Origin: an uncultured Spirochaetales bacterium
GTDB lineage: Bacteria; Myxococcota_A; UBA9160; SMWR01
Length of the DNA: 61,359 bases
Assembly (NCBI GenBank): GCA_964649065.1
Contig: CAZYOL010000003.1
Span: 1 to 61,359 of the forward strand
Direction of reading: 5' to 3'
Shown here: one piece after another, positions 9,465 to 37,530 of the stretch
How positions within the stretch are numbered: position 1 is the first letter of the stretch
How the letters are laid out: each line of letters starts with the position of its first letter
Made by a program: the position numbers and the translations under genes
Notes under the pieces: generated by a model
What the model was told of the DNA's origin: nothing
What the model saw: the letters and a program-made list of their open reading frames with translations, nothing else
The model's database searches: none

Positions 9465-10637
9465 TCAGCCGACCTCGGGCGCGCTCGAGGCGTCGCCCAG
9501 CGTCTCGACCCACTCCTCGAGCAGGCTGCGCTGCCGGAAGAGATCCTGCTCGACGCGACCGTCCACCACGGGACTCTTGAAGAAGAGCGAGAGCTGCTCC
9601 TGCGGGCCCGAGGCCCCGGCGCGAGCAGCCCGCTCCAGGAGCCGAGCCGCGTCGATCAGCAGGGGCGCGGCCAGCACCGAGTCGGCGCAGAAGGTGTTCA
9701 TCTTGAGCTGCATGGGAACGCCGCAGAAGCCGTTGAAGTCGATGCTGTCCCAGGACTCCTTGTTGTCGCCCCGGGGCCGGTAATAGCGGATGTCGACGAT
9801 GTGCGAGTCGACGGGGTAGCCCAGGATCTGGTCCAGCACGCCGGCCTTGTTGCGCAGCTTCTCGGCCGCGTTGTCCGGATCCGCCAGGTTCTCACCGTCC
9901 GCATTGCCCAGATAGTTGGCGCTGATCCAGCCCTCCACCTTCAGGCCGCGCAGGGCCAGCATCGGCGCGATGGCGGTCTTGATCAGGGTCTGGCCCGTCT
10001 TCCCGTCCTTGCCGCAGTAGGGCGTCTTGCTGCGGCGAGCCAGCTCCTTCAGGGCGGGCAGCTCCACGCTCACGTTCGGGGTGAAGTTCACGTAGGGCAC
10101 CCCGACCGTGAAGGCGAGCCAGGCATAGGCCATCGAGGGCGTGATCTCCGGACGATCCTCGAGCAGGGCCTTCTCGAAGCTGGAGACGTCGAGGCCCCAA
10201 GCCCCCTCCGGGGTCGCGAAGGCGGGCAGCAGATCGAGCAGCACCACCGAGCGGCCCGAGGCGACCAGGGATTCGAGCTGCTCCCGCGCGCGGTCCACGG
10301 ACTCGGCGCGGGGCGCCCCCAGCGCCGGCCAGGGGACGATCTCGCGCAGCTCCGGCTCGATCGTGTCGAGGGCCTGGGTGGGCAGCGTGCCCTTCTCCCG
10401 GGCCGCCTCGGCGAGGGAGCGGCCATCCACGTCCCAGCCGGCGACCCGGATCGACGACAGCGGCGTCAGATCGAGGCGGCTGGAGAGAGGGCTCCCGTCA
10501 CCGCTGCCGATCGGCCACGGAAGCTCCGTCAGCAGCCCGTCTCGCGTGCCGCCCTTGTGGATGAGTTCGAGACCAGCCGTCAGGGTGGTTCCGATCGACC
10601 CGGAGATCCCTGCGACTGCCAGAGTGATTTCGCTCAT
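9465..10637 (-). CDS. ino1: myo-Inositol-1-phosphate synthase
   Basis: MIPS blocks are present: VAGISGSIGTT (NAD-binding), VPYVNFTPN, CGKDGKTGQTLIKT, and GWISANYLGNADG with SWDSIDF. I trimmed the start to ATG 10637 (MSEITLAV). Confidence 0.85.
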   Translation of the reverse strand: MSEITLAVAGISGSIGTTLTAGLELIHKGGTRDGLLTELPWPIGSGDGSPLSSRLDLTPLSSIRVAGWDVDGRSLAEAAREKGTLPTQALDTIEPELREIVPWPALGAPRAESVDRAREQLESLVASGRSVVLLDLLPAFATPEGAWGLDVSSFEKALLEDRPEITPSMAYAWLAFTVGVPYVNFTPNVSVELPALKELARRSKTPYCGKDGKTGQTLIKTAIAPMLALRGLKVEGWISANYLGNADGENLADPDNAAEKLRNKAGVLDQILGYPVDSHIVDIRYYRPRGDNKESWDSIDFNGFCGVPMQLKMNTFCADSVLAAPLLIDAARLLERAARAGASGPQEQLSLFFKSPVVDGRVEQDLFRQRSLLEEWVETLGDASSAPEVG

Positions 10638-10696: not shown

Positions 10697-11593
10697 TCAG
10701 GCCGCCACCAGCTGCGCGCCCAGCATGCGCACCTCACCGCGCCGCACCAGGCGCTCGAGGCAGAAGGACAAGGCCGCGTCGAAGAACCACCGCCCGATCT
10801 TGCGGCGGGGGCTGATCGGCGTCTCGAAGCTGGTCATCGCGAACGCCGAGATCTCCTCGAAGTGCTTGGGCTCCTTGAGAAAGAGCCGCAGCTGCTCCTC
10901 GACGTTCATGAGCTGATCGCGCCGCTCGACCATGCGTCGCACGACGTCCTCTTGTACCACGGTCATGTGCCCGGTCACCATCACCCTGGGGGCGAGGTCG
11001 ATCATGCGCTGGAAGGAGGCATGCCAGTCGTCGAGATTGGCCAGCAGGTTCATGCAGGTGGCAGCGATGGGGTTGAGGTCGTAGTCGCCGGCGATCAGGA
11101 TTCCCCAGCGCTCCTCGAAGAGGGCCAGGTGCCCCACCGAGTGGCCGGGCGTATGCACGGCCCGGAAGCGCAGGGAGCCCAGGTCGATCACGTCCCCGTC
11201 CTCGAAGGTCTGCTCGATCGTGAAGGGCTTCGACTCCCAGAGCCGGGCCACCAGCCGATCCCACTCGTCGCACATGGACTGGCTCGGAAAGCCCTGGGCA
11301 TCGCGCAGCAGCGCCGGATCCTCCAGATAGGGCTTCTCGAGGGACTGGCAGGCGCGGGGGCAGTCGAAGAGGAAATTCAGCGAGGTGTGATCCGGGTGGG
11401 AGTGGGTGTTGACCACCAGGTCGTAGTCGGGGAGGCGCGGGCGTAGATACTCCTCGTGGCAGAGGCCCGGGTCGATCAGCACGCGCGAGCTGCCGGCCAG
11501 CTCCACCGCGTTCACATGCGGGTGCCGGCCGTGGAAGCGGCCCCCGTAGAGCACCGTCACGCCGGGATGGATCTCGACGGGCTTGGTGATCAT
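10697..11593 (-). CDS. MBL-fold metallo-hydrolase (possible chain-releasing thioesterase)
   Basis: The metallo-beta-lactamase motif THSHPDH and a downstream HTPGHSVGH are present. The ATG at 11593 overlaps the fabG stop (ATGA). Confidence 0.8.
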   Translation of the reverse strand: MITKPVEIHPGVTVLYGGRFHGRHPHVNAVELAGSSRVLIDPGLCHEEYLRPRLPDYDLVVNTHSHPDHTSLNFLFDCPRACQSLEKPYLEDPALLRDAQGFPSQSMCDEWDRLVARLWESKPFTIEQTFEDGDVIDLGSLRFRAVHTPGHSVGHLALFEERWGILIAGDYDLNPIAATCMNLLANLDDWHASFQRMIDLAPRVMVTGHMTVVQEDVVRRMVERRDQLMNVEEQLRLFLKEPKHFEEISAFAMTSFETPISPRRKIGRWFFDAALSFCLERLVRRGEVRMLGAQLVAA

Positions 11594-12330
11594 ATGGCCA
11601 TGCCCCCGTCGATGGTGAAGACCTGGCCCGTGATGTAGTCCGCGTCGCTGCCGAGCAGGTAGGCCACCAGCCGGGCGACCTCGGTCGCCGTGCCGAAGCG
11701 ACCCAGGGGGATGGCGGCCAGCATCCCCTCGCGGTTCTTCTCCGGAATCGCCTGCGTCATGTCGGTATCGATGAGTCCGGGCGCCACCACATTCACGGTG
11801 ATGCCGGAGCGAGCCGCCTCCCGCGCCAGGGCCTTCGTCAGGCCGATCAGGCCGGCCTTGGCCGCCGAGTAGTTGACCTGTCCCGGATTGCCCACCAGGC
11901 CGCTGATCGAGCCGATGTTCACGATCTTGCCGGCCTTGCGCTTCGACATGGAGAAGATCACCGCGCGGCAGAAGTTGAAGGTGCCGGTGAGGTCCGTATC
12001 GATGACCTCGTGCCACTCCTCCGGCTTCATCATGACGAAGGGGCGGTCGCGGGTGATGCCCGCGTTGTTCACGAGGCCGGTGATGGGACCGAGGCGCCCG
12101 GCCACCTCCTTGACCGTGGCCCGGACGGCCTCCAGATCCGTGGCGTCGCAGGCGAAGCCGGCCACGTGCGGGTTGCGCGGGGCCAGCTCCTTCACCAGCT
12201 CCTCGGCGGCCGCCACGCTCTCCCGGTAGGTGAAGGCCACGCGATCGCCTCGCATCGCGAGGGTGCGAACGATCTCGCGCCCGATGCCTCGGGTGCCGCC
12301 CGTGACCAGGACCACTGCCTCGTCCGACAT
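11590..12330 (-). CDS. fabG: 3-Oxoacyl-ACP reductase (SDR)
   Basis: Motifs VTGGTRGIG, NNAG, YSAAKAG (YxxxK) and a FabG-like C-terminus GQVFTIDGGMAI are present. I trimmed the start to ATG 12330. Confidence 0.9.
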   Translation of the reverse strand: MSDEAVVLVTGGTRGIGREIVRTLAMRGDRVAFTYRESVAAAEELVKELAPRNPHVAGFACDATDLEAVRATVKEVAGRLGPITGLVNNAGITRDRPFVMMKPEEWHEVIDTDLTGTFNFCRAVIFSMSKRKAGKIVNIGSISGLVGNPGQVNYSAAKAGLIGLTKALAREAARSGITVNVVAPGLIDTDMTQAIPEKNREGMLAAIPLGRFGTATEVARLVAYLLGSDADYITGQVFTIDGGMAI

Positions 12331-12332
12331 GG

Positions 12333-13355
12333 CTAGGCCGGCGCCTCCGGGCGGCGGACGGCCAGACAGAGCTGGGTCGAGTCGGGCTGGAAGTCCGTTA
12401 CCAGGGTCGTCGCAGGCCCCGCGGGCAGGGGCAGACCCTGCAGCGTGAGGCCGGCGCTCAGGGAGAGCGCGGCCAGCGCCGTGCCCAGGGCACCGCGGGC
12501 GCCCAGGGCGTCGCCCACGAGATTCGGCAGCGAGACTTCGAGCGGCGCCAGGCCCTCGAGCTCCGAGCCCGGGCTGCCGCAGTCGATCCTGTAGGCGGCC
12601 CGCTCTCCGGCGAGGGCCACCTCGGCCAGGCGCCGCTGCAGCTCCGCGCTGTCCTCTCCCAGGTCGAAGCCGCGCGCAGAGCCTCCGATCTCCGCCAGGG
12701 CAGGGGCGCCCCGCGCCACCGCCGACTCCGCCTCCTCCAGGACCAGCGCGTAGGCTCCCTCTGCGATGGGGCGCGCCGCGCCGACGGCTCCGTGGCGGAG
12801 CCACTCCTCGAGCTCCGGATTCCAGTAGTCCATACCGGCCGCGACGCCCGCGCGGGCCCGGCCGGCGCGGATCACCGAGGCGACGTCTGCGACCGCCTCC
12901 AGCGAGGCCGTCATGCCGCAGAAGGTCCGGGTGAAGCGCTGCGCCTCCAGGTAGACCGCGGTGTAGTTGGCCTGCGAATTCAGCGCTGCGTCGAAGGAGG
13001 CCATCGGCAGCACCTCACCGACGCCCTCGGTGAGGGTGCGGTGGGTGAAGCTGAAGGTCTCGCTGGTGTTCCCGAAGGCGCTGCCCACGGCGAAGCCGAG
13101 CTCCGCCGGATCTCCGAAGTGGGCATCCTCGAGGGCGAGCCTGGAGGCCGAGGCCAGCAGCCGCGTCCCGCGCCCGATGTAGCGAATGCCCTTGGTGCGC
13201 AGGATCGCAGCGACGTCGAACTCCTCGACATCGAGGCGCTCGCCGGCCAGTCGGGCCACGCCACCCTCGTGGGCCCGCTTCCAGAGGGCCTCGCGGCCGA
13301 TTCCCAGCGGGCTGACGGCGCCCACGCCCGTCACCACCACGCGCCGCTCGCTCAA
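12333..13355 (-). CDS. Ketosynthase-like partner subunit lacking the catalytic triad (chain-length-factor type)
   Basis: It has a thiolase-fold N-terminus, RRVVVTGVGAVSPLGIG. Aligned by eye to the adjacent KS, the active-site Cys position reads Met (FCGMTASLEAV versus NACSAGNHAI), and the two His motifs are absent. The proposed TTG start at 13355 overlaps the KS stop (TTGA) and is uncertain. Confidence 0.65.
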   Translation of the reverse strand: MSERRVVVTGVGAVSPLGIGREALWKRAHEGGVARLAGERLDVEEFDVAAILRTKGIRYIGRGTRLLASASRLALEDAHFGDPAELGFAVGSAFGNTSETFSFTHRTLTEGVGEVLPMASFDAALNSQANYTAVYLEAQRFTRTFCGMTASLEAVADVASVIRAGRARAGVAAGMDYWNPELEEWLRHGAVGAARPIAEGAYALVLEEAESAVARGAPALAEIGGSARGFDLGEDSAELQRRLAEVALAGERAAYRIDCGSPGSELEGLAPLEVSLPNLVGDALGARGALGTALAALSLSAGLTLQGLPLPAGPATTLVTDFQPDSTQLCLAVRRPEAPA

Positions 13356-14539
13356 TTCGGAGCTCCGAAGACGACGGCGCAGTTGTTGCCCCCGAAGGCG
13401 TAGGAGTTGTTCAGGGCGTAGCGGACCGGCAGCTCGCGTGCCTCGCCGGGCACACAGTCGATCGGGCAGGCCGGGTCGGGCTGCTCGTGATGGATCGTGG
13501 GGGGCACGCGCCCTTCCTGGATGGCCATGCAGCAGACGAAGGCCTCGATGGCACTCGCCGCTCCCATGGTGTGTCCGATCATGGACTTGATCGAGCTGCA
13601 GGGGAGCCGGCTGGCGCGCTCCCCGAAGACCTCGTGAAGAGCGCCCGCCTCCACCGGGTCGTTGGCGCGGGTGGCGGTGCCGTGCGCGCTGACGTAATCG
13701 ATCTGCTCCGGGGCCAGGCCCGCGTCGCCGAGAGCGTCGCGCATGGCGGCGACCGCCCCCCGGCCCTCGGGGTGGGGCGCAGCGACGTGGTGGGCGTCGC
13801 AGGAGATGCCGTAGCCCAGCACCTCGGCCAGGATCGGGGCGCCGCGGCGGCGCGCCGTCTCGAGCTCTTCGAGCACCAGCCAGGCGGCGCCGTCGCCCAT
13901 CACCAGGCCGCGCCGGTAGAGGTCGAAGGGCCGACAGACATCCGGGGCCAGAGCGCGCAGATTGTCGAAGTGGGTGAAGCTCGTGAAGCTCACGTGTCCG
14001 AAGCCGCCGGCCAGAACCAGGTCGGCCTGGCCGGAGCGAATCCAGTCGCAGCCCGCGGCGATGGCGTGGTTTCCCGCCGAGCAGGCGTTGGCGAGGGTCG
14101 AGACCGGGCCCGCGATGCCGTAGCGGCGCGCCAGCGTGTGAGCGGTGCGATCCGGATGGAGCCACTCCACGCTCTCGCCGGAGAGCCCGGCGCGGCGCTC
14201 GCCCGGGGCGGCGAGCATGCCCTTCTCGAAGAGCAGGGCCTCGCCTCCCAGGATGCCGACCGCCAGGCCGCTGCGCTCCGGGCACTCGGCCCGCCGTCCG
14301 CCGCGACCGCTGGCGGCCCAGGCCTCCTCGAAGGGCACGACGGCCAGGTGCTCGTGCGTCTGCTGCCCGGCCATCAGGCGGCTCTGGGCCGCTACGTGGG
14401 TACGGTGCTTGGAGGTGTCGAAGCCCTCGAGGGGCGCGACGCCGTCGCGCCCCTCGAGGAGATTCGCCCAAGACTCCCGGGCGTCGTCGCCGACGGCGCA
14501 GGCCACGCCGACGGCTGTGACGGCGACCCGGGGTCTCAC
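13352..14539 (-). CDS. Beta-ketoacyl-ACP synthase II-like (active KS)
   Basis: The catalytic motifs are intact: NACSAGNHAI (Cys), SCDAHH and SAHGTAT (His), with GHTMGAAS and a FGGNN C-terminus. The GTG start at 14539 overlaps the rSAM stop (GTGA). Confidence 0.9.
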   Translation of the reverse strand: MRPRVAVTAVGVACAVGDDARESWANLLEGRDGVAPLEGFDTSKHRTHVAAQSRLMAGQQTHEHLAVVPFEEAWAASGRGGRRAECPERSGLAVGILGGEALLFEKGMLAAPGERRAGLSGESVEWLHPDRTAHTLARRYGIAGPVSTLANACSAGNHAIAAGCDWIRSGQADLVLAGGFGHVSFTSFTHFDNLRALAPDVCRPFDLYRRGLVMGDGAAWLVLEELETARRRGAPILAEVLGYGISCDAHHVAAPHPEGRGAVAAMRDALGDAGLAPEQIDYVSAHGTATRANDPVEAGALHEVFGERASRLPCSSIKSMIGHTMGAASAIEAFVCCMAIQEGRVPPTIHHEQPDPACPIDCVPGEARELPVRYALNNSYAFGGNNCAVVFGAPN

Positions 14540-15960
14540 GCCACCTTCCGCCGCTTCCGCTCGGCCTCGTGGTAGATGCCCGAGTCGCGAAGCAGCCGGA
14601 GATTCTTCAGCACGTGCTCGAAGACCCCCTTCCAGTCCAGGTTGATGCGGTAGGCGAACATCGAGTTGAACGAGTTCCCCGTGCGCCGACGGCCATCGAA
14701 GGCGCGCTCCCGCAGGGCCTGCTTGCTGTACAGGTTGTCGTAGACGTACTGCATGCCGTCGATGAACTGCTCGAGGGACATGCTCTCCAGCAGGTGCGTG
14801 AGGTGGCCCGAGTTGTAGTAGACCCAGTCCTCGGGGAAGTTCTGGCGAATCGTCCGACCTTCCTGGGCCAGCCGCTTGCCGAGGTGGGTCCCCGGCATGC
14901 TGGTCAGGAGGCCGAAGGTCATCACGTCGATCCCCGACTCCCGCACGAACTCGACGGCGTTCTTGAAGGTGTCCGGACCCTCGCCGTCGGCCCCGAAGAT
15001 CATCGAGCCCCAGACGATCATCCCGGCGTTGTGGATGTTGTCGATGGCGACGCGGAAGTTGTCCACGCCGATCTTCAGGTTCGGACCCTTGCGCAGCTTG
15101 CGGAGGATCTGGGCATCGGTGGTCTCGATGCCGATCAGCATCCCCAGCCCGCCGCTGCGGGCCATGTACTCCAGCCCCTCGGTGTCGAGGCCCGTGCTGA
15201 ACTGGGTGAAGCCGAACCAGGTCTTGTGGATCCCGCGATCGACCATTCCCTTGAACAGGGCCTTGGCGTGGGCGTTGGCCTCCTTGCTGTAGCCGTAGAA
15301 GTTGTCCTCGGCGAGCATCAGGCCCTGGTAGGGGATCTCCTCCATCTCGTCGAGGATGTCGTGGACCGGCCGCATCCGGTACTTGTGGCCCTGCAGGACC
15401 GGCACGCAGCAGAACTCGCAGCGCCAGGGACAGCCCTTGGTGGTCACGATCGACGAGAACTTGTAGCCGTACTTGTTCGTCAGCAGATCGCGATCCGGCC
15501 GGTAGTCCTTCAGCAGCTCCAGGTCCGGGAGGCCCCCGTCGTAGAGCGGCTGCAGCGAGTCCTTGCGGTAGTCGGCCAGGAACTGCTCCCAGACGAGCTC
15601 CGCCTCGCCCTTGACGATGGCGTCCGAGTGCTGCGCCACCTCGTCCGGATGGGTGGTGGCATGGGCACCGCCGAAGACGACCTTCATGCCCTGGGCCCGG
15701 GCCGCATCGGCGATCTGGTAGGCCCGCGGCGCCTGGTAGGTGAGCGTGGTGATGCCCACCAGATCGGCGTCGAAGCGGAGCTTGCCGTTCTCGTCGATGG
15801 CCGGCTCGATCGCCTCATCGATGATGTCGACGTCCCACTCGTCCTTCGGAGTGAGTGCGGAGAGGTAGGCCAGGTTCAAGGGCATCTGCACGATGACCTT
15901 GATGTCCTCTTCGCCGCGATTCCCCGGCGGGTGCGGATTGATCAGCATCAGTTTAGGCAC
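14536..15960 (-). CDS. B12-binding-domain radical SAM enzyme (class B), family A, copy 2
   Basis: The N-terminal cobalamin-binding-type Rossmann segment reads DLVGITTLTYQAPRAY..VVFGGAHAT. The radical SAM cluster motif is GCPWRCEFC. It is a tandem paralog of 15948..17378. Confidence 0.85.
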   Translation of the reverse strand: MPKLMLINPHPPGNRGEEDIKVIVQMPLNLAYLSALTPKDEWDVDIIDEAIEPAIDENGKLRFDADLVGITTLTYQAPRAYQIADAARAQGMKVVFGGAHATTHPDEVAQHSDAIVKGEAELVWEQFLADYRKDSLQPLYDGGLPDLELLKDYRPDRDLLTNKYGYKFSSIVTTKGCPWRCEFCCVPVLQGHKYRMRPVHDILDEMEEIPYQGLMLAEDNFYGYSKEANAHAKALFKGMVDRGIHKTWFGFTQFSTGLDTEGLEYMARSGGLGMLIGIETTDAQILRKLRKGPNLKIGVDNFRVAIDNIHNAGMIVWGSMIFGADGEGPDTFKNAVEFVRESGIDVMTFGLLTSMPGTHLGKRLAQEGRTIRQNFPEDWVYYNSGHLTHLLESMSLEQFIDGMQYVYDNLYSKQALRERAFDGRRRTGNSFNSMFAYRINLDWKGVFEHVLKNLRLLRDSGIYHEAERKRRKVA

Positions 15961-17378
15961 GTGAGCCCCCTCTCCTTCATGGTGCGCTCGTAGAGACCCG
16001 ACTCGCGGAGCGCGTAGAGATTTTCCAGAACCTGCCGGAACACCTTGTCCCAGTCACTGCTCACCTTGTACGCGAACATCGCCGTCCGGCGGCTGCCATT
16101 GGCCTTGAGCGACTTCACGAAGCGCTCGCGGAGGGCCCGGCCCGCGTAGAGGTTGTCGTACACGTACTGCATGCCCTCGATGAAGTCGTCCAGCGACATG
16201 TGCGAGAGCGTGTGGGTCAGGTGCGCGGTGTCGTAGTACTCCCAGTCCTCCGGGAAGTTGTCCCGCAGCAGCCGGTTCTCCTTCTCCATCCGCTTGAAGA
16301 GCGGCGTCGAGGGGAAGGGGCAGTGGATGCCGAAGGTCAGGATGTCGATGGAGTGTTCCAGGATGTAGTCGGTCATGACCTTGAAGGCATCCTTGGTCTG
16401 GAAGTCGGCCCCCCAGATCACGGAGGCCCAGACGACCATGCCGTTGTCGTGGATGTTCTTGATGGCCGACGGGTAGTTCTCCACGCCGGTCTTCAGGTTC
16501 GAGCCCTTGCGGAGCTTCTTCAGCACCTCCGGGTCGGTCGACTCCATGCCGATCAGCATGCCGAGGCAGCCGCTGTCGGACATGTCCTTCAGCGCGTCGA
16601 CGTCGTGGCCCGTGCTGAACTGCGAGAAGCCGAACCAGTCCTTGCGGATGCCGCGCTCCACCATGCCCCGGAAGAGCTTCCGCGCCCGCTCGTTCGACTC
16701 GGGCTTGTAGCCGTAGAAGTTGTCCTCGGCGAACATCAGGCCACGGAAAGGCGTGGCCTCCATCTCGTCGAGGACGTCGTCGATCTCCCGCTCCCGGTAG
16801 GTGCGGCCCGAAGACATGGGCACGCTGCAGAACTCGCAGCGCCAGGGGCAGCCCTTGGTGGTCACGATCGACGAGTACTTGTAACCGTACTTGCCCTTGA
16901 AGAGATCCCGGTCCGGATGCTTCTGCATGTAGGTCAGGTCCGGGAAGTCGCCGTCGTAGAGCTTCTCGAGCGTGCCGTTCTCGAAGTCGTCCAGGATCTT
17001 GGCCCAGATCGGCTCCGCCTCCCCGACGACCACGGCGTCCACGTGGTTCATCGCCTCCTCGCGGGCGGTGGTCGCGTGGGTGCCGCCGAAGACCACCGGG
17101 ATGCCCTTCGCGCGGCACTGGGCGGCGATCTTGTAGGCGCGCGGCGCCTGGTAGGTGAGCGAGGTGATGCCGACGAGGTCGGCGTCGAAGGTCAGCCGCC
17201 CCTCGTCGTCGAGGGCCTCCTCGTGGATCTCGTCGATCATGTCGATTTCCCACGCGTCTTGCGGCGTGTGGGCGGCGATGTAGGCCAGGTTGAGCGGCAT
17301 TTGCACGATCACCCGGATGTCTTCTTCGCCGTGGCGCCCCTTGGGGTGCGGGTTGATGAGTACGAGCTTCTTCTTCAC
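15948..17378 (-). CDS. B12-binding-domain radical SAM enzyme (class B), family A, copy 1
   Basis: It has the same architecture (DLVGITSLTYQAPRAY, VVFGGTHAT, GCPWRCEFC). I trimmed the start to GTG 17378 (VKKKLVLINPH), preceded by GGGGAGGG and overlapping the desaturase stop (GTGA). Confidence 0.85.
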   Translation of the reverse strand: MKKKLVLINPHPKGRHGEEDIRVIVQMPLNLAYIAAHTPQDAWEIDMIDEIHEEALDDEGRLTFDADLVGITSLTYQAPRAYKIAAQCRAKGIPVVFGGTHATTAREEAMNHVDAVVVGEAEPIWAKILDDFENGTLEKLYDGDFPDLTYMQKHPDRDLFKGKYGYKYSSIVTTKGCPWRCEFCSVPMSSGRTYREREIDDVLDEMEATPFRGLMFAEDNFYGYKPESNERARKLFRGMVERGIRKDWFGFSQFSTGHDVDALKDMSDSGCLGMLIGMESTDPEVLKKLRKGSNLKTGVENYPSAIKNIHDNGMVVWASVIWGADFQTKDAFKVMTDYILEHSIDILTFGIHCPFPSTPLFKRMEKENRLLRDNFPEDWEYYDTAHLTHTLSHMSLDDFIEGMQYVYDNLYAGRALRERFVKSLKANGSRRTAMFAYKVSSDWDKVFRQVLENLYALRESGLYERTMKERGLTCLN

Positions 17379-18808
17379 GAGGCCCTCCCCTCTTCTCCAC
17401 TCTCCTGGATTCGCTTGGCGGCCATCCAACCTGAAGCTGCCACCGCGCACACCCCGGGACCCGGTGAGGTCCACTGGCCCGCGAGCCAGAGACCGTCGAG
17501 TGAGGTGTGCTGAGCGAAGCGGTCGTTGCCCGACTGGTCTGGGGTCACTGCCCAGCCATAGGCCACCCCCTCCTTGGAGAGCGTATAGCGCGCCAGCGTC
17601 CGTGGCGACGCCGCTTCCAGGAAGGTGAGATGATTTCCGATGCCCGGCACCCGGTCGTCCAGATAGCCGAGCACGGCCTCGGACATGCTGGCCTTCGAGT
17701 CCTGCCAGCTCGTGAAGGCCTCGGAGTCCGGCCGGACGCCGACCGTGGCGGACACGATCTGCTCGCCGTTCGGCGCCAGGCCCGGATCGACTTCCGTGGT
17801 GACCGAGAGGTAGATCCAGTCGATGGCCGGATGGTCCTCGGGGAAGTGATAGAAGCCCCGCACCAGCGGCGACAGGTCGACCTCCGGAGAGAAGGCCGCG
17901 TAGAAGCCATAGAAGGAGGGACCGGCCTTGAGCTCGCGGATGCGCTGGCGCTCCGGGGCACAGGCCGACTCGGGGAGCAGATCGAAGAAGAGCTGGCGGG
18001 CATCGATGGCGCTGATCACCGTGTCGGCGCGGATCGTCCGCCCCCCCTCGAGCCGAACCCCGGCGGCCCGGTTGCCCTCGATCAGGATCTCGCTGACGTG
18101 CTGGCGCAGGCAGACGTGACCGCCCGCTCGCTGCACCGCGTCCACCATCGCATTCGAGAAGGCCTGGGTGCTCCCCACCGGGTAGTAGGCGCCGTCCTTC
18201 AGGTAGTTCACGAGCATCTGGCACATCCCGACCGCCGAGATCTCCTCGGCGCGGGAGCCGAGGTAGCCCCACTGACCGGCGAGGACCTTCACGAGCCGCG
18301 GATCCTCGAAGTAGTCGGCCAGCATCTCGTGGTAGGTGGAGCCCCGGTAGCGATCGATCAGCTCGCCGCCGCGGCGCCGGTTCAACACCTGCCGGTAGAG
18401 GCGCACGAGGTCGGTGAAGAAGCGCGGAATCTGCTCCTTCTCGTCGGGGAAGCGCTGGGCCAGCTCGACCTGGTACTGCTCCAGCTCCGCCGGGATCTCC
18501 AGCTCGAGATCCGGGAAGATCAGGTGGTCCATCGGGTCGAGGCGCAGGAGCTTCACCTCCACCCCGAGCCGCGAGACCACCTGCCCGACGATGCCGAAGC
18601 GCCCGCATCCGCCGATGTGGTGGACGGCCGCATCGAAGACGTACTTCTTGCGCGGGAACGCGGTGCAGTAGCCGCCCGGCAGGTAGTGCTGGTCGAGCAC
18701 CAGGGTGCGGCCGCCGGCCTGGCTGAGAAAGCCGCCGCAGGTGAGCCCGCCGATGCCGGCTCCGATCACCACCTGGTCGTAACGATCCAGCAGCTCCGAT
18801 GCGCGCAT
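17375..18808 (-). CDS. Phytoene desaturase (CrtI)-family FAD-dependent oxidoreductase
   Basis: The FAD dinucleotide fold is VVIGAGIGGLTCGGFLSQAG. The block GGYCTAF..FD and the C-terminal GLWLAGQWTSPGPGV are typical of the CrtI / amine-oxidase family. I trimmed the start to ATG 18808. Confidence 0.8.
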   Translation of the reverse strand: MRASELLDRYDQVVIGAGIGGLTCGGFLSQAGGRTLVLDQHYLPGGYCTAFPRKKYVFDAAVHHIGGCGRFGIVGQVVSRLGVEVKLLRLDPMDHLIFPDLELEIPAELEQYQVELAQRFPDEKEQIPRFFTDLVRLYRQVLNRRRGGELIDRYRGSTYHEMLADYFEDPRLVKVLAGQWGYLGSRAEEISAVGMCQMLVNYLKDGAYYPVGSTQAFSNAMVDAVQRAGGHVCLRQHVSEILIEGNRAAGVRLEGGRTIRADTVISAIDARQLFFDLLPESACAPERQRIRELKAGPSFYGFYAAFSPEVDLSPLVRGFYHFPEDHPAIDWIYLSVTTEVDPGLAPNGEQIVSATVGVRPDSEAFTSWQDSKASMSEAVLGYLDDRVPGIGNHLTFLEAASPRTLARYTLSKEGVAYGWAVTPDQSGNDRFAQHTSLDGLWLAGQWTSPGPGVCAVAASGWMAAKRIQESGEEGRAS

Positions 18809-18816
18809 GGCCTGCT

Positions 18817-19983
18817 TCACGCCCGGGACACCACCACCGCGCCGCAGTGCCCGGCCTCGTCGCGAGCCGTCACCAGGACGTGGTCCACGGTCGTCTCCCG
18901 CGCCTCGCCGATCACCAGGTCGAGCCCGGCCGCGTCGGCGTCGACGTTCGCGAGCCCGGCCACGGGAGGAATCCGGTTGGAGAGAATCGAGCTCGTCGCG
19001 GAGACGACGCCGATGGCGCCGGAGGCCTCGAGACACTCGCGCGTCGCCGACTTGGGAGCGTTGACGGGCACGGCCCCCGCCGCCTCGCCGAGCAGCGCGC
19101 GAATCGCGGCCAACTCGATCGCATCACCGGACACGCTGCCGGAGGCCCCGGAGGAGATCAGCGAGAGATCCTCGGCGCGCAGCGACGCCTGCGCGAGGGC
19201 TCCGCGCATGGCGACGACCAGGCCCTCGTGGGGCGCCGTGGAGCCCTCGGGCGGAGCGAAGGAGGTGCAGGCGCCGGCGATCCAGGCCAGCGCGGGTGCG
19301 CCGCGCGTCTCGGCCGCCGACTCGTGCTCGAGCACCACGACCGCCGCCCCCTCTCCGAGCACGGCGCCGCGACGCTTGGCGCCGAAAGGCGCCTCGGCCT
19401 GGGCGGCGTCGCCCAGCAGGCCCGCGCGCTGGAAGCCCAGCTCGATCTCGCTCGAGTAGCCCAGGGCCGCCCCGCAGATCGCCGCGCGAATCTGACTGCC
19501 GCTCAGGGTGGCCAGGCTGTGGGCCAGGGCGTCCAGCGCCGAGGCGGAGCCGCTCGAGAGCGTCGAGTTGAGTCCGGTGACTCCGAGTCGAATGGCGAGG
19601 CGCCCCGCGGGCGCATTGATCACGGTATTCGCGAAGGACTGCGGATTCACGTAACGCGGCCCCTCGCGCAGGGCCTCCTGATCGAAGTCCGCGATCGACT
19701 GGATGCTCCCGTGGGTCTCGCCCACCACGATGCCGATCTCCTCGGGCTCGTACGCCCCCTCGGGGAGCTTGCTCGCGTCGATGGCTGCCGTGGCCGCGCT
19801 CGCCAGCAGCAGGGCGGTGCGGTCGAAGTGGCGGATGCCGCGCTCGCCGAGGTAGGCCCCCGGCTCGAAGTCGGACAGGGTCCCGGGCATGCCCACGCGC
19901 CCCTCGAGCATCGCCTCGAAGGCCACCTCGGGGCCCAGCCCGGCCGGGCAGAGCAGTCCGGCACCGGTGATCACCACCCTCAT
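18817..19983 (-). CDS. Ketosynthase-like partner subunit lacking the catalytic triad (chain-length-factor type)
   Basis: It has a thiolase-fold N-terminus, MRVVITGAGLL. The Cys position reads Ser (STLSSGSASALDAL versus PTACAAGNYAL), and the His positions are replaced (ACTSFAPP, SSGASGSVSGD). The ATG at 19983 overlaps the KS stop (ATGA). Confidence 0.75.
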   Translation of the reverse strand: MRVVITGAGLLCPAGLGPEVAFEAMLEGRVGMPGTLSDFEPGAYLGERGIRHFDRTALLLASAATAAIDASKLPEGAYEPEEIGIVVGETHGSIQSIADFDQEALREGPRYVNPQSFANTVINAPAGRLAIRLGVTGLNSTLSSGSASALDALAHSLATLSGSQIRAAICGAALGYSSEIELGFQRAGLLGDAAQAEAPFGAKRRGAVLGEGAAVVVLEHESAAETRGAPALAWIAGACTSFAPPEGSTAPHEGLVVAMRGALAQASLRAEDLSLISSGASGSVSGDAIELAAIRALLGEAAGAVPVNAPKSATRECLEASGAIGVVSATSSILSNRIPPVAGLANVDADAAGLDLVIGEARETTVDHVLVTARDEAGHCGAVVVSRA

Positions 19984-21191
19984 GCGTCGACGGCCCTCAG
20001 GACCAGGCAGCTGTTGTTCCCGCCGAAGGCGAAGGCGTTGTTGAGTGCCACGCGCACCGGGTGCTGCCGGGCCTCGTTGGGAACCATGTCCACCTCGCAC
20101 TCGGGATCCGCGTTCTCGTAGTGGATGGTGGGCGGGATCGCCCCGGTCTCGATCGCCAGGCAGCAGGCGATGGTCTCGATGGTGCTCGCCGCTCCCATGG
20201 TGTGACCGATCATCGACTTGATGGAGCTCATCGGCGCCTCCCCCCGGTCGTTGAAGAGGGCGCGCACCGCGGCGGACTCGATCTTGTCGTTGGCCTTGGT
20301 GCCGGTGCCGTGGGCGCTCACGTAGTCGACCTCGCCCGGGCTCACGCGGGCGGCCTTGAGCGCCCGGCGCATCGCCAGCTGGATCCCGCGGCCCTCGGGA
20401 TGGGGCATGGTCATGTGATGGGCGTCACAGGAGAAGCCCGCCCCGACGACCTCGGCGTAGATCCGCGCGCCGCGCCGCCGCGCCGAGCTCAGGGACTCCA
20501 CCACCACCATGCCCGCCCCCTCGCCGATCAGCAGGCCCTGACGCTCCCGGTCGAAGGGCCGGCAGTACTCCGGGGCGATGGCACCCAGACGGGCGAAGCC
20601 CGTGAAAGCCACCCTGGAGAGCGGATCGGAGCCGCCGGCCAGCACGACCTCGGTCTGGCCCGTGCCCACCCAGCCCCCGGCGATCGAGAGGGCGTAGTTG
20701 CCGGCGGCGCAGGCCGTCGGCACGACCACGTTGGGCCCGCAGAGATCGAAGGCCGACGCCACGCTCCCGGAGATCACGTGGCAGGGGTGCTTCAGGAACT
20801 CGCGCTCGGGCACGGCCTCCTGGCCGCGCTCGAGGCTGACGTCGTTCATGTGCTCGAGGACCTGGATCTCGCCGCCGGTGGTCCCCACTGCGACGCCGGC
20901 GTTGCGCGGCGGCCTGTCGAGGCCGGCGTCCGCCAGCGCCAGGCGCGCCGCCTCGATGGCCAGCAGGCTGGCCCGCCCCGGATCCCGATCGCCCGCCGGG
21001 CGGATCTCGCGTCCGAAGAGGGCATCGTCGTCCAGCTCGCAGGCGCGGTGCACCTTGAAGCCCGAGGTCTCGAAGCTCGAGACCTCGCTGGAGCCGTCCT
21101 GCCCCTCGAGCAGCGCCCGCCAGAAGTCGTCGCGACCCGCCCCGATGGACGTGATCGGACCGAGCCCCGTGATGACCGCGCGCTCTGCCAT
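19980..21191 (-). CDS. Beta-ketoacyl-ACP synthase II-like (active KS)
   Basis: Catalytic motifs are intact: TACAAGNYAL (Cys), SCDAHH, SAHGTGTKAND, GHTMGAAS, FGGNN. Confidence 0.9.
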   Translation of the reverse strand: MAERAVITGLGPITSIGAGRDDFWRALLEGQDGSSEVSSFETSGFKVHRACELDDDALFGREIRPAGDRDPGRASLLAIEAARLALADAGLDRPPRNAGVAVGTTGGEIQVLEHMNDVSLERGQEAVPEREFLKHPCHVISGSVASAFDLCGPNVVVPTACAAGNYALSIAGGWVGTGQTEVVLAGGSDPLSRVAFTGFARLGAIAPEYCRPFDRERQGLLIGEGAGMVVVESLSSARRRGARIYAEVVGAGFSCDAHHMTMPHPEGRGIQLAMRRALKAARVSPGEVDYVSAHGTGTKANDKIESAAVRALFNDRGEAPMSSIKSMIGHTMGAASTIETIACCLAIETGAIPPTIHYENADPECEVDMVPNEARQHPVRVALNNAFAFGGNNSCLVLRAVDA

Positions 21192-21703
21192 CAGGAGCCG
21201 TTCCCCGACGACTGCGCCGCGGACAGGGTCGCGTCGCGTTGGATCGCCGCGCGGTCGACGCGCGCGAAGGTCAGCCCGGCCTTCAACACGACTCGGCCGT
21301 CCACTTCACCGCGAGCCTTGACCATGGCGGCCTTCGAGTAGATCCGCTCGACGTCGACGAAGATGCGCAGGGCATCGCCCGGCACGACGGGGTGCAGGAA
21401 GTGCGAGCGCGAGCGCCCGACCACGAAGACCTGGTCGGGCTCCGCCGAGAGCATCGACTCCCCGGTATCACTCATTCGGAAGAGCAGGATAGAGGCCTGC
21501 GCGCAGGCCTCCATCATCAGCGCACCCGGCATGATCGCGATCTCCGGGAAGTGCCCCGCGAAGTAGGGCTCGTTGCCGCTGACGTTCTTCAGACACTCGA
21601 TCGACTCGAAAGGAACGACGTCGATCACCCGGTCGATGAAGACGAACGGGTAGGTCTGCGGCAGCAGCCGACGGAGCGTGTCGAAGTCGAGGCCGGTCGA
21701 CAC
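21191..21703 (-). CDS. fabZ: 3-Hydroxyacyl-ACP dehydratase
   Basis: The FabZ signature is LLPQTYPFVFIDRV ... NEPYFAGHFPE..IMPGALMMEACAQ. It uses a GTG start. Confidence 0.85.
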   Translation of the reverse strand: MSTGLDFDTLRRLLPQTYPFVFIDRVIDVVPFESIECLKNVSGNEPYFAGHFPEIAIMPGALMMEACAQASILLFRMSDTGESMLSAEPDQVFVVGRSRSHFLHPVVPGDALRIFVDVERIYSKAAMVKARGEVDGRVVLKAGLTFARVDRAAIQRDATLSAAQSSGNGS

Positions 21704-21710
21704 GAACGTT

Positions 21711-21968
21711 CTAGGCGGCGGCGTTCTTTTCCAGCTCGCGCCGGACCAGTGCGATCGTGGCTGTGAGCGACGTCACATCCAGGAGCTCTTCCTCCTCGAT
21801 CTCGATCCGGTACTTCTTCTCGATGCTCGCCACGATCTCGAGGGCCAGCATCGAGTCGATCTCGAGCTCGTCCATGAAGTGCTTCTCGCGCTGCTCCCAG
21901 AGCTCCTTCTCGTCGATCTCGGTCACCTCGGCCACGATGGCGGTGATTTCTTCCTCGAGCTGGCTCAT
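21711..21968 (-). CDS. Acyl carrier protein (dedicated)
   Basis: This is an 85-aa acidic protein with the phosphopantetheine-attachment motif ELEIDSMLALEI. It is the first gene of the minus-strand operon. I trimmed the start to ATG 21968. Confidence 0.85.
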   Translation of the reverse strand: MSQLEEEITAIVAEVTEIDEKELWEQREKHFMDELEIDSMLALEIVASIEKKYRIEIEEEELLDVTSLTATIALVRRELEKNAAA

Positions 21969-22235
21969 GCCTCTCCTTTCAAGGCTACGCGGTCCACACC
22001 TGCACGGGTCCCAATGGACGTGAGCGTGTGGTGACCCCCCAAGGTCGTTCGCGCGCCTAACTTCGCGTTCGGTACCCGCGGCGTCAAGCCCTGTGCCGCC
22101 CGACGCACGGATGCGGACGATACACAAGACGAGCGTTCTGCCAAAGAGCGGTGTGGGGCTTTTCCTTCACTTTTTGCGCTTCCCCCGGGCGCACCCCGCC
22201 CCGCGGCGGGGTATCCTGCCGCGCCAGCGCGAGCC
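21969..22235. promoter_or_regulatory. Divergent intergenic region between the ACP operon and the crotonase/rSAM operon
   Basis: This 267-bp gap separates the divergent first genes. It contains the only comparatively A/T-rich stretch nearby (22159-22182, cttttccttcactttttgcgcttc) and the inverted repeat CCCCGCC-n4-GGCGGGG (22194-22211). No -35/-10 boxes could be assigned with confidence. Confidence 0.3.
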
Positions 22236-23069
22236 ATGGAAACCTCCTTCTTCGACGTCGACACCAAGGACCAGATCGCCCATGTCCGCATGGCGCGCCC
22301 CAAGCGCTTCAATGCGCTGGACGCCGATTTCTGGCGGGAGCTGCCGGCGCTGCTCGGCGAGCTGGACGCGAGCGGCGACGTGCGGGCCATCGTCCTCTCC
22401 TCCACGGGCCGACACTTCAGTGCGGGAATGGACAACGAGATGCTCGCCTCGCTCGGGCCCGACCCGTCGGGAAGCGAGTCCGATGCGCGCGCAAACGTGC
22501 GCGCGCGCGCCACGCAGCTCCAAGAGGTCTTCAACGCCCTCGAGGAAGTCCGCATGCCGGTGATCGCCGTGATCCAGGGCGGCTGCGTGGGCGGCGCGCT
22601 CGACATGGTGGTGGCCTGCGACATCCGTTACTCGACGGCCAATGCCTTCTTCTGCATCGGCGAGATCAACCACGCGATCACCGCAGACCTCGGCACGCTG
22701 CAGCGATTGCCGAAGCTGATCCCGCCGGGCGTGGTGCGCGAGCTGGCCTTCACGGGCCGCCGTCTCCCGGCGGAGAGCGCCCTCCGCCTCGGCCTGGTGA
22801 ACGAGGTCTTCGAGGGCCCCGAGGCGGCCCTGGAGGCCGCCCTGCAGACCGCTCGCGAGATCGCCGCCCAGGCTCCGGCGGCGATCTGGGGCACGAAGGT
22901 GGCCCTCAACTACGCGCGCGATCACTCCGTGGCCGACTCCCTCGACCAGGTCGCCACGTGGCAGTCCGGCATGTTCCGTCCGGGGGACGTGGGCGAGGCG
23001 ATGCTCGCCCGGCGCAAGCGCCGCCCCCCGAGCTTCGAGAATCTACCGCCCAGGCCCCGTCGGCCTTGA
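22236..23069 (+). CDS. Enoyl-CoA hydratase/isomerase (crotonase) family protein, dienoyl-CoA isomerase-like
   Basis: The crotonase fold is indicated by ARPKRFNALD, HFSAGMD, VIAVIQGGCVGGALDMVVACDIRY and FTGRRLPAESALRLGLVNEVF. Confidence 0.85.
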   Translation: METSFFDVDTKDQIAHVRMARPKRFNALDADFWRELPALLGELDASGDVRAIVLSSTGRHFSAGMDNEMLASLGPDPSGSESDARANVRARATQLQEVFNALEEVRMPVIAVIQGGCVGGALDMVVACDIRYSTANAFFCIGEINHAITADLGTLQRLPKLIPPGVVRELAFTGRRLPAESALRLGLVNEVFEGPEAALEAALQTAREIAAQAPAAIWGTKVALNYARDHSVADSLDQVATWQSGMFRPGDVGEAMLARRKRRPPSFENLPPRPRRP

Positions 23070-23136
23070 AAGGCGGGCAGATGGCCTATGGTGGGGGCCG
23101 ATGGAACGAGCGCCTGCGGCGCTCAGGGGGGAAGTG

Positions 23137-37102: not shown

Positions 37103-37530
37103 CGTTCCGCCCCTCGTCGCCGTTCGCGGATGCGCCGCTCGAGTGCCGCCAGCGGCTCGTCGCCGCTTCGCTCGAGCAGGTCGACGAAGGCGGACAAGAG
37201 GGTCTCGGCGCCGGCTCCGGGCAGGTCGTGCAGGACCTGCTCGATCGCCTGGGAGAGCCACTCGCCGCGCGAGAGGGTCGCCTCGTAAAGGTAGGCGCGA
37301 CCCTGCTTCGAACGCCGCGCCAGCCCCTTGCGATGCAGGCGCTCGAGGGTCGACTGCACCGTGTTGGAACGGATGCCGCGCGGCTCCCCGACGGCCCGCT
37401 GCATGGCTCGCACGTCCGACGGGCCGTCGGACCACAGTCGGTCGAGGACCGCCCGCTCGAGCGCTCCGAGGGCGAAGGCCTTGGCGCGGAGCACGCCGCC
37501 CAAGATCGTCGTCGAGGCGGGCGATGTCAA
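37099..37530 (-). CDS. BlaI/MecI/CopY-family transcriptional repressor
   Basis: It is a winged-helix penicillinase-repressor type: LGALERAVLDRLW, TVQSTLERLHRKGL, YLYEA. It is co-transcribed with the M56 partner. Confidence 0.8.
   Translation of the reverse strand: MTSPASTTILGGVLRAKAFALGALERAVLDRLWSDGPSDVRAMQRAVGEPRGIRSNTVQSTLERLHRKGLARRSKQGRAYLYEATLSRGEWLSQAIEQVLHDLPGAGAETLLSAFVDLLERSGDEPLAALERRIRERRRGAER

Follow-up and report, generated by a model that had tools for sequence, protein, structure and literature searches.

Introduction

The biosynthesis of ladderane lipids has been an open question for more than 20 years; anammox bacteria are genetically intractable and their enzymes are poorly expressed in heterologous hosts (PMC4790861, PMC10139942). 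The consensus ladderane cluster, Cluster I of Kuenenia (kuste3603-3608), encodes amxACP, amxFabZ, amxFabF2, amxFabF-mut, a phytoene dehydrogenase-like protein (PDH) and a B12-binding radical S-adenosylmethionine enzyme (B12-rSAM), an assignment that is unproven (PMC10139942), and no experiment has tied the anammox cluster to a product (PMC10139942; bioRxiv 10.64898/2026.05.19.726425). Here we describe an operon at positions 10697-21968, minus strand, of a bacterial DNA stretch of 61,359 nucleotides (contig CAZYOL010000003.1, hereafter the window). The operon and its partner genes quite probably represent a self-contained, enlarged orthologue of the anammox 'ladderane' genes, which lies in a non-anammox, probably myxobacterial genome and would make an unusual acyl chain.

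Some of the anammox proteins have been studied individually. In amxFabZ, a bulky Ile69 narrows the substrate tunnel at a position occupied by Gly in canonical FabZ, and the enzyme favours substrates up to C8 (PMC10139942). The heterodimer of ketosynthase (KS) with chain length factor (CLF) from Brocadia decarboxylates malonyl-amxACP and favours C6-C8 probes in vitro (bioRxiv 10.64898/2026.05.19.726425). Cluster I was described as exclusive to ladderane producers in structural papers of 2023 and 2026 (PMC10139942; bioRxiv 10.64898/2026.05.19.726425), and a 2026 review repeats the anammox-only framing. Rattray 2009 reported that other fatty-acid clusters of Kuenenia share a looser synteny with Desulfotalea and Geobacter, and several metagenome surveys mention antiSMASH 'ladderane-type' biosynthetic gene clusters in other phyla, unanalysed (PMC9902471, PMC7298704). 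No prior report of gene-for-gene Cluster I orthologues outside anammox bacteria was found in the literature, the coverage of which was incomplete, so that this is absence of evidence only.

Collinearity with Anammox Cluster I

The base composition of the window, 72% GC, means that raw lists of open reading frames (ORFs) carry little information. Gene models were built from a frame plot of GC at the third codon position (GC3) and start-codon mapping, and were annotated by Pfam and NCBIfam profile searches with the NCBIfam equivalog cutoffs applied. By this analysis, 11 minus-strand genes, lettered A to K with rising coordinate, fill 10697-21968 exactly, and their junctions are overlaps of 1-4 nt or gaps of 2-7 nt. 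From K to A they encode an acyl carrier protein (ACP), FabZ, KS, CLF, a CrtI-like oxidoreductase, two B12-rSAMs, KS, CLF, FabG and a hydrolase of the metallo-beta-lactamase (MBL) fold. The Cys-His-His triad of ketosynthases is intact in I and D and lost in H (Ser/Gly/Glu) and C (Met/-/Asp), and the operon therefore holds two KS/CLF pairs. A preliminary description of this DNA, made from its letters, had drawn the same tightly coupled operon from ACP to MBL; every gene call proved right, including the two KS/CLF pairs, and the profile searches gave the expected B12-binding, Radical_SAM, ketoacyl-synt and Amino_oxidase domains. Its statement that a ketoreductase and a dehydratase are present without a FabI/FabK/FabV-type enoyl reductase also holds, as neither the operon nor the remaining ORFs of the 61 kb window yielded a FabI, FabK, FabV or FadH-type reductase. 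The limits 10697-21968 are exact for the 11 genes, while the functional unit is larger than was described, probably reaching to 7374 and including a divergent operon at 22236-28702.

A database search with the B12-rSAM encoded by F returned proteins of Kuenenia, Brocadia, Scalindua and other anammox bacteria at 55-60% identity. The Kuenenia match sits in kuste3603-3608, and K-F comprise the same six genes in the same order. K-F are likewise collinear with locus L001 (5187-11461), and tBLASTn of the window proteins against 57 loci located the collinear core in ~40 anammox genomes, with identities of 56-63% for ACP, 44-51% for FabZ, 51-54% for KS1, 36-42% for CLF1, 42-50% for PDH and 56-60% for the rSAM. 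Against the Kuenenia proteins kuste3603-3608 the six range from 38 to 59%. For four of the window proteins (K, J, I and H) anammox structures are the best PDB matches by a wide margin.

Beyond gene content and order, the window shares with Cluster I the Ile69 of the dehydratase, a dead CLF triad with Glu at the His333 position, and the rSAM subfamily. The two differ in the remaining CLF1 triad residues, which are Ser/Gly/Glu in the window and Val/Asn/Glu in kuste3606. Moreover, the window operon adds a second rSAM, a second KS/CLF, FabG, MBL, myo-inositol-1-phosphate synthase (MIPS), a ligase and a hydroxylase, lies in a 72% GC non-anammox host, and branches outside the entire Brocadiia clan. 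On comparison of the sequences we conclude with high confidence that the locus is orthologous to the anammox 'ladderane' genes and stands in a non-anammox context. The resemblance to the proposed ladderane set, which the preliminary description had pointed out, thus turns out to be collinear orthology, beyond shared domain content, and the synteny comparison that it had proposed with kuste-type clusters matched K-F to kuste3603-3608 gene for gene. Its view that this composition matches no characterised pathway remains valid as well, the anammox counterpart itself having no experimentally linked product. Its suggestion of a new lipid-modification system needs amendment: the system is not wholly new and is an expanded, non-anammox variant of a known, functionally uncharacterised cluster.

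Proteins of the Cluster I Half

All genes of this half lie on the minus strand. The first gene of the operon, K (21711-21968), with the ribosome-binding site AAAGGAGAGG upstream, encodes an amxACP-type acyl carrier protein of 85 aa (PP-binding, 1.8e-10). It aligns without gaps to the amxACP structures 7qv0_D, 7auf and 9s5i at 92 bits, the next ACP scoring 37 bits and E. coli-type ACP ~25 bits. J (21191-21703) encodes an amxFabZ-type 3-hydroxyacyl-ACP dehydratase of 170 aa (FabA/FabZ, 4.5e-23) that passes the FabZ model NF000582 with 118 bits (cutoff 113) and scores 141 bits against amxFabZ (7qv0_A and 8ayb) versus 95 bits against canonical FabZ. Its motif 'QASI' aligns with the 'QASI' of amxFabZ, with Ile69 present along with the catalytic His and Glu. 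Near position 115 it has Tyr/Ile, not Arg/Lys, in keeping with the non-basic residue of amxFabZ (PMC10139942).

KS1, the product of I (19980-21191), is a predicted active ketosynthase and orthologue of amxFabF2/kuste3605 (ketoacyl-synt N 1e-36, C 1e-38). It scores 471 bits against amxFabF2 (9s5h_B), followed by polyene-forming Iga11 (6kxd; 320 bits), its nearest non-anammox structural relative, and FabF (288 bits). CLF1, the product of H (18817-19983), is a catalytically dead KS (KS fold, 3.6e-22 and 1.2e-13) orthologous to amxFabF-mut/kuste3606, with 252 bits to 9s5h_C and 125 bits to the next match. Its motif 'KSATRECLEASG' corresponds to 'KSMTGECLDASG' of kuste3606 (Rattray Table 2), 'ECL-ASG' being common to both. 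G (17375-18808, with an alternative GTG start at 18820) encodes a FAD oxidoreductase of the CrtI/phytoene dehydrogenase type (Amino_oxidase 7e-17, NAD_binding_8), orthologous to kuste3607 and 42-59% identical to the PDH of other clusters. It reaches 143 bits against crtI_fam, short of the cutoff of 238, and 61 bits against the CrtI structure 4dgk.

B12-Binding Radical SAM Enzymes

F (15948-17378, minus strand) encodes a B12-binding radical SAM enzyme of the Cluster-I (kuste3608) subfamily with B12-binding, Radical_SAM and DUF4070 domains and the CX3CX2C motif in the form 'CPWRCEFC'. It is 59% identical to Kuenenia kuste3608 and 74-77% identical to copies in metagenome-assembled genomes (MAGs) of Acidobacteriota and Planctomycetota, and the high-GC clade containing it has a bootstrap of 100 in the rSAM tree. 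E (14536-15948, minus strand, with an alternative GTG start at 15960) encodes a second enzyme with the same domains and Cys motif, a divergent paralogue 58% identical to F. The family resolves into three subfamilies, namely Cluster-I, 'paralogue-2' and module-2, of which the second occurs by itself in anammox genomes. E falls at the base of the Cluster-I subfamily, which includes F and E with a support of 0.77, and rSAM3 and rSAM4 of the divergent operon form an outgroup set apart at a support of 1.0. In none of 200 bootstrap replicates did E join the module-2 or the paralogue-2 subfamily, which rules it out as an orthologue of the module-2 (kuste2803-type) rSAM despite its position ahead of KS2.

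rSAM3 (23134-24693, plus strand; Radical_SAM, DUF4070, B12-binding) belongs to a separate family, as does its paralogue rSAM4 (24693-26264, plus strand), to which it is 64% identical. The family has a bootstrap of 100, and both proteins are ~30% identical to E and F. Orthologues of rSAM3 (63-65% identity) terminate the single-strand arrays of the MAGs MFD04944, MFD00822 and MFD03975, and no anammox relatives of rSAM3/4 were among the top 120 database matches. Homologues that are ~50% identical occur in MAGs of Chloroflexota, Binatia, Pirellulales and Ktedonobacterales, without an NCBIfam model.

CX3CX2C is present in all of the rSAMs, and the family alignment has 77 invariant columns. Their domains and motif are those of class B (cobalamin-dependent) radical SAM enzymes such as TsrM, TokK, CysS, HpnR, HpnJ and BchE, and of Jaw5. 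The window rSAMs differ from these in scoring just 22-39 bits against any solved structure, in weak core matches (TsrM, AprD4, TokK, CysS), and every NCBIfam equivalog score is far under its cutoff. Apart from the enzymes considered here, only one rSAM, Jaw5 of jawsamycin biosynthesis, has been proposed to act on a ketoacyl-type lipid (PMC13459092). Methylation, cyclisation and coupling are all conceivable here, and the reaction type cannot be assigned from the sequence.

A caution is due on the model TIGR04072 ('rSAM_ladder_B12'; cutoff 360 bits), against which F scores 62, E 75, and rSAM3 and rSAM4 57 each. Because kuste3608 itself reaches only 87 bits, and all three Cluster-I-family subfamilies 73-96 bits, failure against this model says nothing on Cluster I membership. 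The model describes an rSAM family other than that of Cluster I, and its name can mislead annotation.

The Second Half and Anammox Module 2

The second half of the operon, likewise on the minus strand, begins with D (13352-14539), which encodes KS2, a predicted active ketosynthase (KS domain, Cys-His-His intact) orthologous to the anammox module-2 KS of the kuste2804 type. C (12333-13355) encodes CLF2, a truncated dead KS of 340 aa with a weak match to the KS N-domain only, orthologous to the kuste2805 type. B (11590-12330) encodes a FabG 3-oxoacyl-ACP reductase that passes TIGR01830 (301 bits, cutoff 297.75) and is 47-66% identical to the FabG terminating related clusters. For A (10697-11593), which encodes the MBL-fold hydrolase (Lactamase_B 6.7e-14; weak GloB/SoxH-like matches), we infer only that it would act as a thioester-releasing enzyme. 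It is kept only in the closest relatives (locus L138).

To define module 2, the KS behind the second rSAM in a contig of the Brocadiales lineage (L020) was used as a probe against GTDB species representatives. The array found comprises AcpS, a B12-rSAM, KS, a dead KS, a FadH-like reductase of 670 aa, an enoyl-CoA hydratase/isomerase (ECH) and FabG, and it is conserved in Scalindua, Jettenia, Brocadiaceae, Subterrananammoxibius and groundwater Brocadiales. It agrees with what Rattray 2009 and Javidpour 2016 list for kuste2802-2805, both in gene content and in the deviant residues of kuste2805. The assignment is based on the loci of Jettenia, Scalindua and other Brocadiia together with these published lists. 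Module 2 and Cluster I lie ~14 kb apart and convergent in two Scalindua contigs, OFTM1 JAIQZU010000039 (L018 and L158) and S. arabica JAANXD010000001 (L025 and L156), and abut directly in the MAG CSMAG_693 (L020/L141). The gene for the FadH-like 2,4-dienoyl reductase stands between CLF and ECH/FabG (10423-12450 in L158, 10524-12533 in L141); this 670-aa protein seems not to feature in the lists of ladderane candidates consulted.

In the KS/CLF tree the orthogroups have bootstraps of 80 (KS1), 95 (CLF1), 100 (KS2) and 95 (CLF2), and D and C fall inside the KS2 and CLF2 clades, which include the module-2 proteins of Jettenia, Scalindua and Subterrananammoxibius. The window thus resembles module 2 in its orthologous KS/CLF, in a FabG that ends the array, and in an associated crotonase. 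It is unlike module 2 in that CLF2 is cut to 340 aa, ECH is placed in the divergent operon, and the rSAM preceding KS2 (E) falls outside the module-2 subfamily. AcpS and FadH-like (Oxidored_FMN plus Pyr_redox_2) domains, both found in L158 and L141, are in none of the window ORFs. On this comparison the window unites Cluster I with two components of module 2, its KS/CLF and its FabG, in what is a partial 'fusion' of the two.

Distribution, Host and Origin

Carriers were sought in two scans over 185,579 GTDB species representatives, with the best 80 loci taken per scan (e.g., 80 of 136). Outside anammox bacteria only MAGs, and no cultured, tractable carriers, were found among the best 80 of 136 matches. 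The core with FabG is present in the Acidobacteriota MAGs MFD06085 and '13_1_40CM_2_60_7' and in the Planctomycetota MAG Bin8. Planctomycetota PNC17 has the same 10-gene order as the window, and Blastocatellia SMAG_U9992 carries Cluster I followed by KS2-CLF2-rSAM-rSAM on the same contig. The tandem rSAMs of PNC17 (L003/L223, 10001-12913) are each other's closest relatives (bootstrap 84), unlike E and F, which points to a separate duplication, or to gene conversion, in the corresponding position. Among three 'delta proteobacterium' MAGs from Danish soils, two (MFD04944 and MFD00822) have the complete locus as a single co-directional array of ACP, FabZ, KS1, CLF1, PDH, three rSAMs, KS2, CLF2, ECH, FabG and the rSAM3 orthologue. 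In the Myxococcales MAG SIF170217_bin_155 (L046/L288) there is no CrtI-like PDH between CLF1 and the first rSAM, and the flavoenzyme may accordingly be dispensable or encoded elsewhere.

The soil 'delta proteobacterium' and Myxococcales arrays (L226, L230, L291; L046/L288) hold three tandem rSAMs, one for each of the subfamilies held by anammox bacteria. Since all three subfamilies stand in tandem there, this implies that the stand-alone 'paralogue-2' rSAM of anammox genomes (e.g., L039, L044, L047) is part of the same pathway. Of the three subfamilies, the window carries just the Cluster-I type. Together, the window and these MAGs gather in one array the genes that are scattered over two to three loci in anammox genomes (Cluster I, the kuste2804/2805-type KS/CLF, FabG and ECH), which gives a testable minimal gene set; the high-GC orthologues from apparently aerobic hosts are also candidate enzyme sources for expression and in vitro work. 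As the window and MAG loci in three phyla carry orthologous genes, the premise that Cluster I is exclusive to ladderane-producing anammox bacteria appears, at the level of genes, to be false. Two possibilities follow: lipids of the ladderane kind also occur in other bacteria, with consequences for their role as an anammox biomarker, or the product of Cluster I differs and the consensus needs revisiting. The finding also agrees with Liao et al. and indicates possible donor or sister lineages.

A tree of concatenated ACP, FabZ, KS1, CLF1 and rSAM (1482 positions, 200 bootstraps) places all Brocadiia in one clan (100%) and the window outside it with the high-GC versions of Acidobacteriota and Planctomycetota (100%), while other Myxococcota versions form a separate clan. 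By this placement, the cluster was not taken recently from anammox bacteria, and its history departs from the species tree. The layout, including the divergent operon and the MBL-MIPS pair, is repeated in three independent metagenome assemblies at ~93% protein identity (rSAM 93%), and codon usage of the cluster correlates with that of its flanks at r = 0.996, with a GC3 of 0.927 versus 0.919. This recurrence and codon match indicate a real, native cluster and no chance pattern or chimera. Anammox loci have 37-41% GC compared with 65-73% for the loci of the window type. Recent horizontal transfer from anammox bacteria was considered as well and, like a chimeric assembly, was ruled out by codon usage, GC, the concatenated tree and the independent assemblies.

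The phosphoenolpyruvate carboxylase (PEPC) encoded in the window is 63-66% identical to that of uncultured Myxococcota/Myxococcales MAGs and 45% identical to that of Kuenenia, and the label Myxococcota bacterium is attached to a relative whose rSAM2 is 87% identical. The host genome is thus probably myxobacterial. A TonB-dependent receptor (33863-36055) indicates a diderm cell, and the O2-dependent desaturase and hydroxylase suggest an aerobic lifestyle. With 72% GC, native codon usage, the PEPC and the tree position taken together, the host is judged not to be an anammox bacterium.

Downstream Genes and the Divergent Operon

Three further minus-strand genes follow the operon. MIPS (9465-10637; NAD_binding_5, Inos-1-P_synth), probably in the same transcription unit, is encoded 35-59 nt downstream of A, a position kept in locus L138. 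After a gap of 10 nt comes a PaaK-like acyl-AMP (CoA) ligase of the DVU_1553 family (8126-9454; AMP-binding, AMP-binding_C_2), with 189 bits against NF045666, under the cutoff of 300. The gene overlaps by 4 nt with that of an O2-dependent, OlsC/LpxO-like lipid acyl 2-hydroxylase of the Asp/Asn beta-hydroxylase fold (7374-8129; Asp_Arg_Hydrox 1.3e-45), which scores 155 bits against OlsC and 112 bits against LpxO, both under cutoff. As the genes overlap or are separated by short gaps and no terminator-like sites were found on the minus strand between 21968 and 7374, the transcription unit probably extends to 7374.

Between the two operons lies an intergenic region of 267 bp (21969-22235) with presumed promoters, in which one sigma-70-like site on the minus strand (22144-22117) was found, a consensus match only. 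No Rfam riboswitch was found in this region. Control of the operon by a cobalamin riboswitch or another RNA element was considered and dropped, the RNA search having found just two tRNAs. The divergent operon (plus strand) starts with a crotonase of the ECH family (22236-23069; ECH_1 3.8e-38), which passes PRK06142 (311 bits, cutoff 308); in anammox module 2, as in the arrays of the soil 'delta proteobacterium' and Myxococcales MAGs, an ECH gene is located between those for CLF2 and FabG. Following rSAM3 and rSAM4 are an alpha/beta hydrolase (26257-27189; Abhydrolase_1, Abhydrolase_6), which is beside rSAM4 in locus L139 as well, and two ORFs of uncertain membership, namely a second, weaker alpha/beta-hydrolase-like ORF (27207-27878; Abhydrolase_6 3e-8) and a short-chain dehydrogenase/reductase-type oxidoreductase of the PRK08278 family (27875-28702; NF006133 255 bits, cutoff 250, passed), which is not FabI. 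The divergent operon is tied to the system because the soil 'delta proteobacterium' arrays include a co-directional rSAM3 orthologue.

Proposed Pathway and Alternatives

We infer the chemical steps from sequence homology, with moderate confidence in the general mechanism and low confidence in any specific product. KS1/CLF1 would prime through decarboxylation of malonyl-ACP and elongate on the dedicated ACP, as for the Brocadia proteins. FabG would then reduce the 3-keto group, and the short-chain-restricted FabZ (Ile69) would dehydrate. As no enoyl reductase is encoded, the chain would remain a conjugated enoyl or polyenoyl thioester of ~C6-C8, and a product that stays polyenic is plausible. 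Conjugated dienoyl thioesters are handled by enzymes of the kinds found in anammox module 2 (FadH-like reductase, crotonase), which lends circumstantial support to polyenoyl intermediates. The CrtI-like flavoenzyme may next desaturate or isomerise the chain, and the B12-rSAMs may act on unactivated carbons, forming C–C bonds through the addition of methyl groups and/or through ring closure. KS2/CLF2 would lengthen the remodelled intermediate. Finally, the MBL hydrolase would free the acid and the acyl-AMP ligase would re-activate it for entry into a membrane lipid, with possible 2-hydroxylation by the OlsC-like enzyme and maybe an inositol head group from MIPS. What is predicted to result is an acyl chain of unusual, branched or cyclic form, possibly with cyclobutane rings, the structure of which is not readable from the sequence.

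Several points weigh against this proposal. No product is known for any member of the cluster family, anammox bacteria included, and the chemistry is predicted throughout. A housekeeping FabI could reduce the intermediates in trans. The 'fusion' of Cluster I with module 2 is only partial because E is not of the kuste2803 type and AcpS and the FadH-like reductase are absent. MBL, MIPS, the ligase and the hydroxylase may be lineage-specific passengers, since they are conserved only in the closest relatives. The O2-dependent hydroxylase and the nearby desaturase point to an aerobic-looking host, unlike the strictly anaerobic anammox bacteria. Moreover, the host taxonomy is drawn from a single marker and the labels of MAGs, all trees were built by neighbour joining alone, and the deep nodes of the rSAM tree are weak (0.5-0.8).

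Among other explanations, a highly reducing type II polyketide synthase (PKS) that yields a secondary metabolite (a C-methylated polyene, an aryl-polyene-like pigment or some other compound) in place of a bulk membrane lipid is possible yet unlikely; the anammox Cluster I would then perhaps not be the ladderane pathway at all. A KS/CLF heterodimer with ketoreductase, dehydratase and discrete ACP in the absence of an enoyl reductase is the logic of the ishigamide (Iga10-13 and Iga16) and aryl polyene (APE) systems, and Iga11 is the best non-anammox structure for KS1. Most characterised B12-rSAMs are methyltransferases, and TsrM, TokK and CysS appear among the weak PDB matches of the window enzymes. 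The ishigamide PKS, however, has no B12-rSAM or CrtI-like enzyme, the window FabZ is of the short-chain amxFabZ type, and KS1 is nearer to amxFabF2 than to Iga11. The APE and flexirubin clusters share two ketosynthase systems, a ketoreductase, a dehydratase, an ACP and an acyl-AMP/CoA ligase with the window, where FlxB and FlxY of flexirubin give sub-threshold matches. In contrast to them, the window operon lacks the aryl starter, LolA/MMPL export and acyl-/glycosyl-transferases: no hallmark gene of APE clusters (starter activation, thioesterase, export, transferases) was found in or beside it, the only MMPL gene being 32 kb away. The earlier remark that the rSAM and CrtI genes set the operon apart from APE clusters is borne out, as both are foreign to these clusters.

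Sub-threshold matches were also obtained for AmcB, AmcE and AmcF of cispentacin biosynthesis, where a KS/CLF-like pair and a FabZ-like enzyme of the AmcB-AmcH set form a carbocycle while the intermediate is bound to an ACP (PMC10698177). They provide a precedent for carbocycle formation by type II PKS-like machinery, but the scores stay under the cutoffs (AmcE 101 vs 140; AmcF 250 vs 325) and no rSAM takes part there. The synthases of polyunsaturated fatty acids (Pfa) are more remote, the window proteins all being discrete and PfaA reaching 133 bits against a cutoff of 1010. ACP, FabZ and KS/CLF of the window are far nearer to the anammox proteins than to any PKS protein, and MIPS and the OlsC/LpxO-like hydroxylase are operon partners of the lipid type, both of which argue against a PKS.

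Another explanation is that the cluster makes genuine ladderane (fused cyclobutane) fatty acids and that some soil Myxococcota, Acidobacteriota and Planctomycetota are producers too, which we regard as rather doubtful. In its favour, orthology and shared gene order extend over all six genes of Cluster I as well as FabG and the KS/CLF pair of module 2, the window proteins retain the residues diagnostic of amxFabZ and amxFabF-mut, and each of the three anammox rSAM subfamilies is held by the soil 'delta proteobacterium' and Myxococcales arrays. Ladderanes, however, have so far been found only in anammox bacteria (PMC9387917), and that Cluster I makes them is itself not proven (PMC10139942). The rSAMs of the window are solely of the Cluster-I type (F and E) or of the rSAM3/4 family, the latter with no anammox names in the top 120 matches, and the window lacks the FadH-like reductase; its host is apparently aerobic and the identities are only 38-59%. 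Equally doubtful is the wider scenario in which aerobic soil Myxococcota, Acidobacteriota and non-anammox Planctomycetota make cyclobutane acyl chains, anammox bacteria acquired the pathway horizontally, and the single-locus version of the window is the complete gene set. If the cyclobutane interpretation were true, ladderanes would be neither an anammox invention nor an anammox-specific biomarker.

An accessory type II fatty acid synthase operon that makes ordinary or mid-chain methyl-branched saturated fatty acids, with a housekeeping enoyl reductase acting in trans, is very improbable. FabG does score above the FabG equivalog cutoff, B12-rSAMs can methylate unactivated carbons, and an outside enoyl reductase would be needed if saturation occurs, as the cluster has none. 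Ordinary fatty acids, on the other hand, do not need two KS/CLF heterodimers, a tunnel-blocked FabZ (Ile69) or a CrtI-like enzyme, and the ACP is a specialised one by its scores against amxACP and E. coli-type ACP. An assembly or binning artefact, in which an anammox fragment was joined to a high-GC contig, has practically no likelihood: nothing except the unexpected taxonomy speaks for it, and it is already refuted by the GC and codon agreement with the flanks, the recurrence of the layout in other assemblies, and the position of the window proteins outside the Brocadiia clan.

Other Features of the Window

On the minus strand, two luciferase-like oxidoreductases of the F420 type (28706-29608 and 30247-31299) and a protein of the F420H2-dependent quinone reductase/FDOR family (42352-42801) were found. 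These F420 enzymes could act as ene-reductases, their link to the cluster being hypothetical. A lipid-handling neighbourhood at 53561-59859 and 59856-60521 comprises an MMPL/RND transporter fused to a cyclic nucleotide-binding (cNMP) domain, a cNMP-binding patatin phospholipase, a WS/DGAT wax-ester/triacylglycerol synthase and an SCP2 protein. The opposite end of the window encodes a fatty-acid desaturase (164-1147) and a diacylglycerol kinase-like protein (2085-3200).

An Ala/Leu/Gly/Trp-rich polytopic membrane protein of 576 aa with no Pfam match is encoded at 51774-53504 (minus strand), a region with the highest GC of the window (0.77) and a strong AT skew (0.32). The region 47743-51666 has a low coding score and includes small ORFs for a DUF6036-like protein (48945-49451) and a PIN-domain toxin (49917-50351), adjoining tRNA-Asp at 51590-51666. 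It may represent a toxin-antitoxin module or what is left of a mobile element. At 36107-37503 (minus strand), adjoining the TonB-dependent receptor, lies a pair formed by a BlaR1-like M56 peptidase and a BlaI/Penicillinase_R repressor, and a tRNA-Val is located at 60604-60680.

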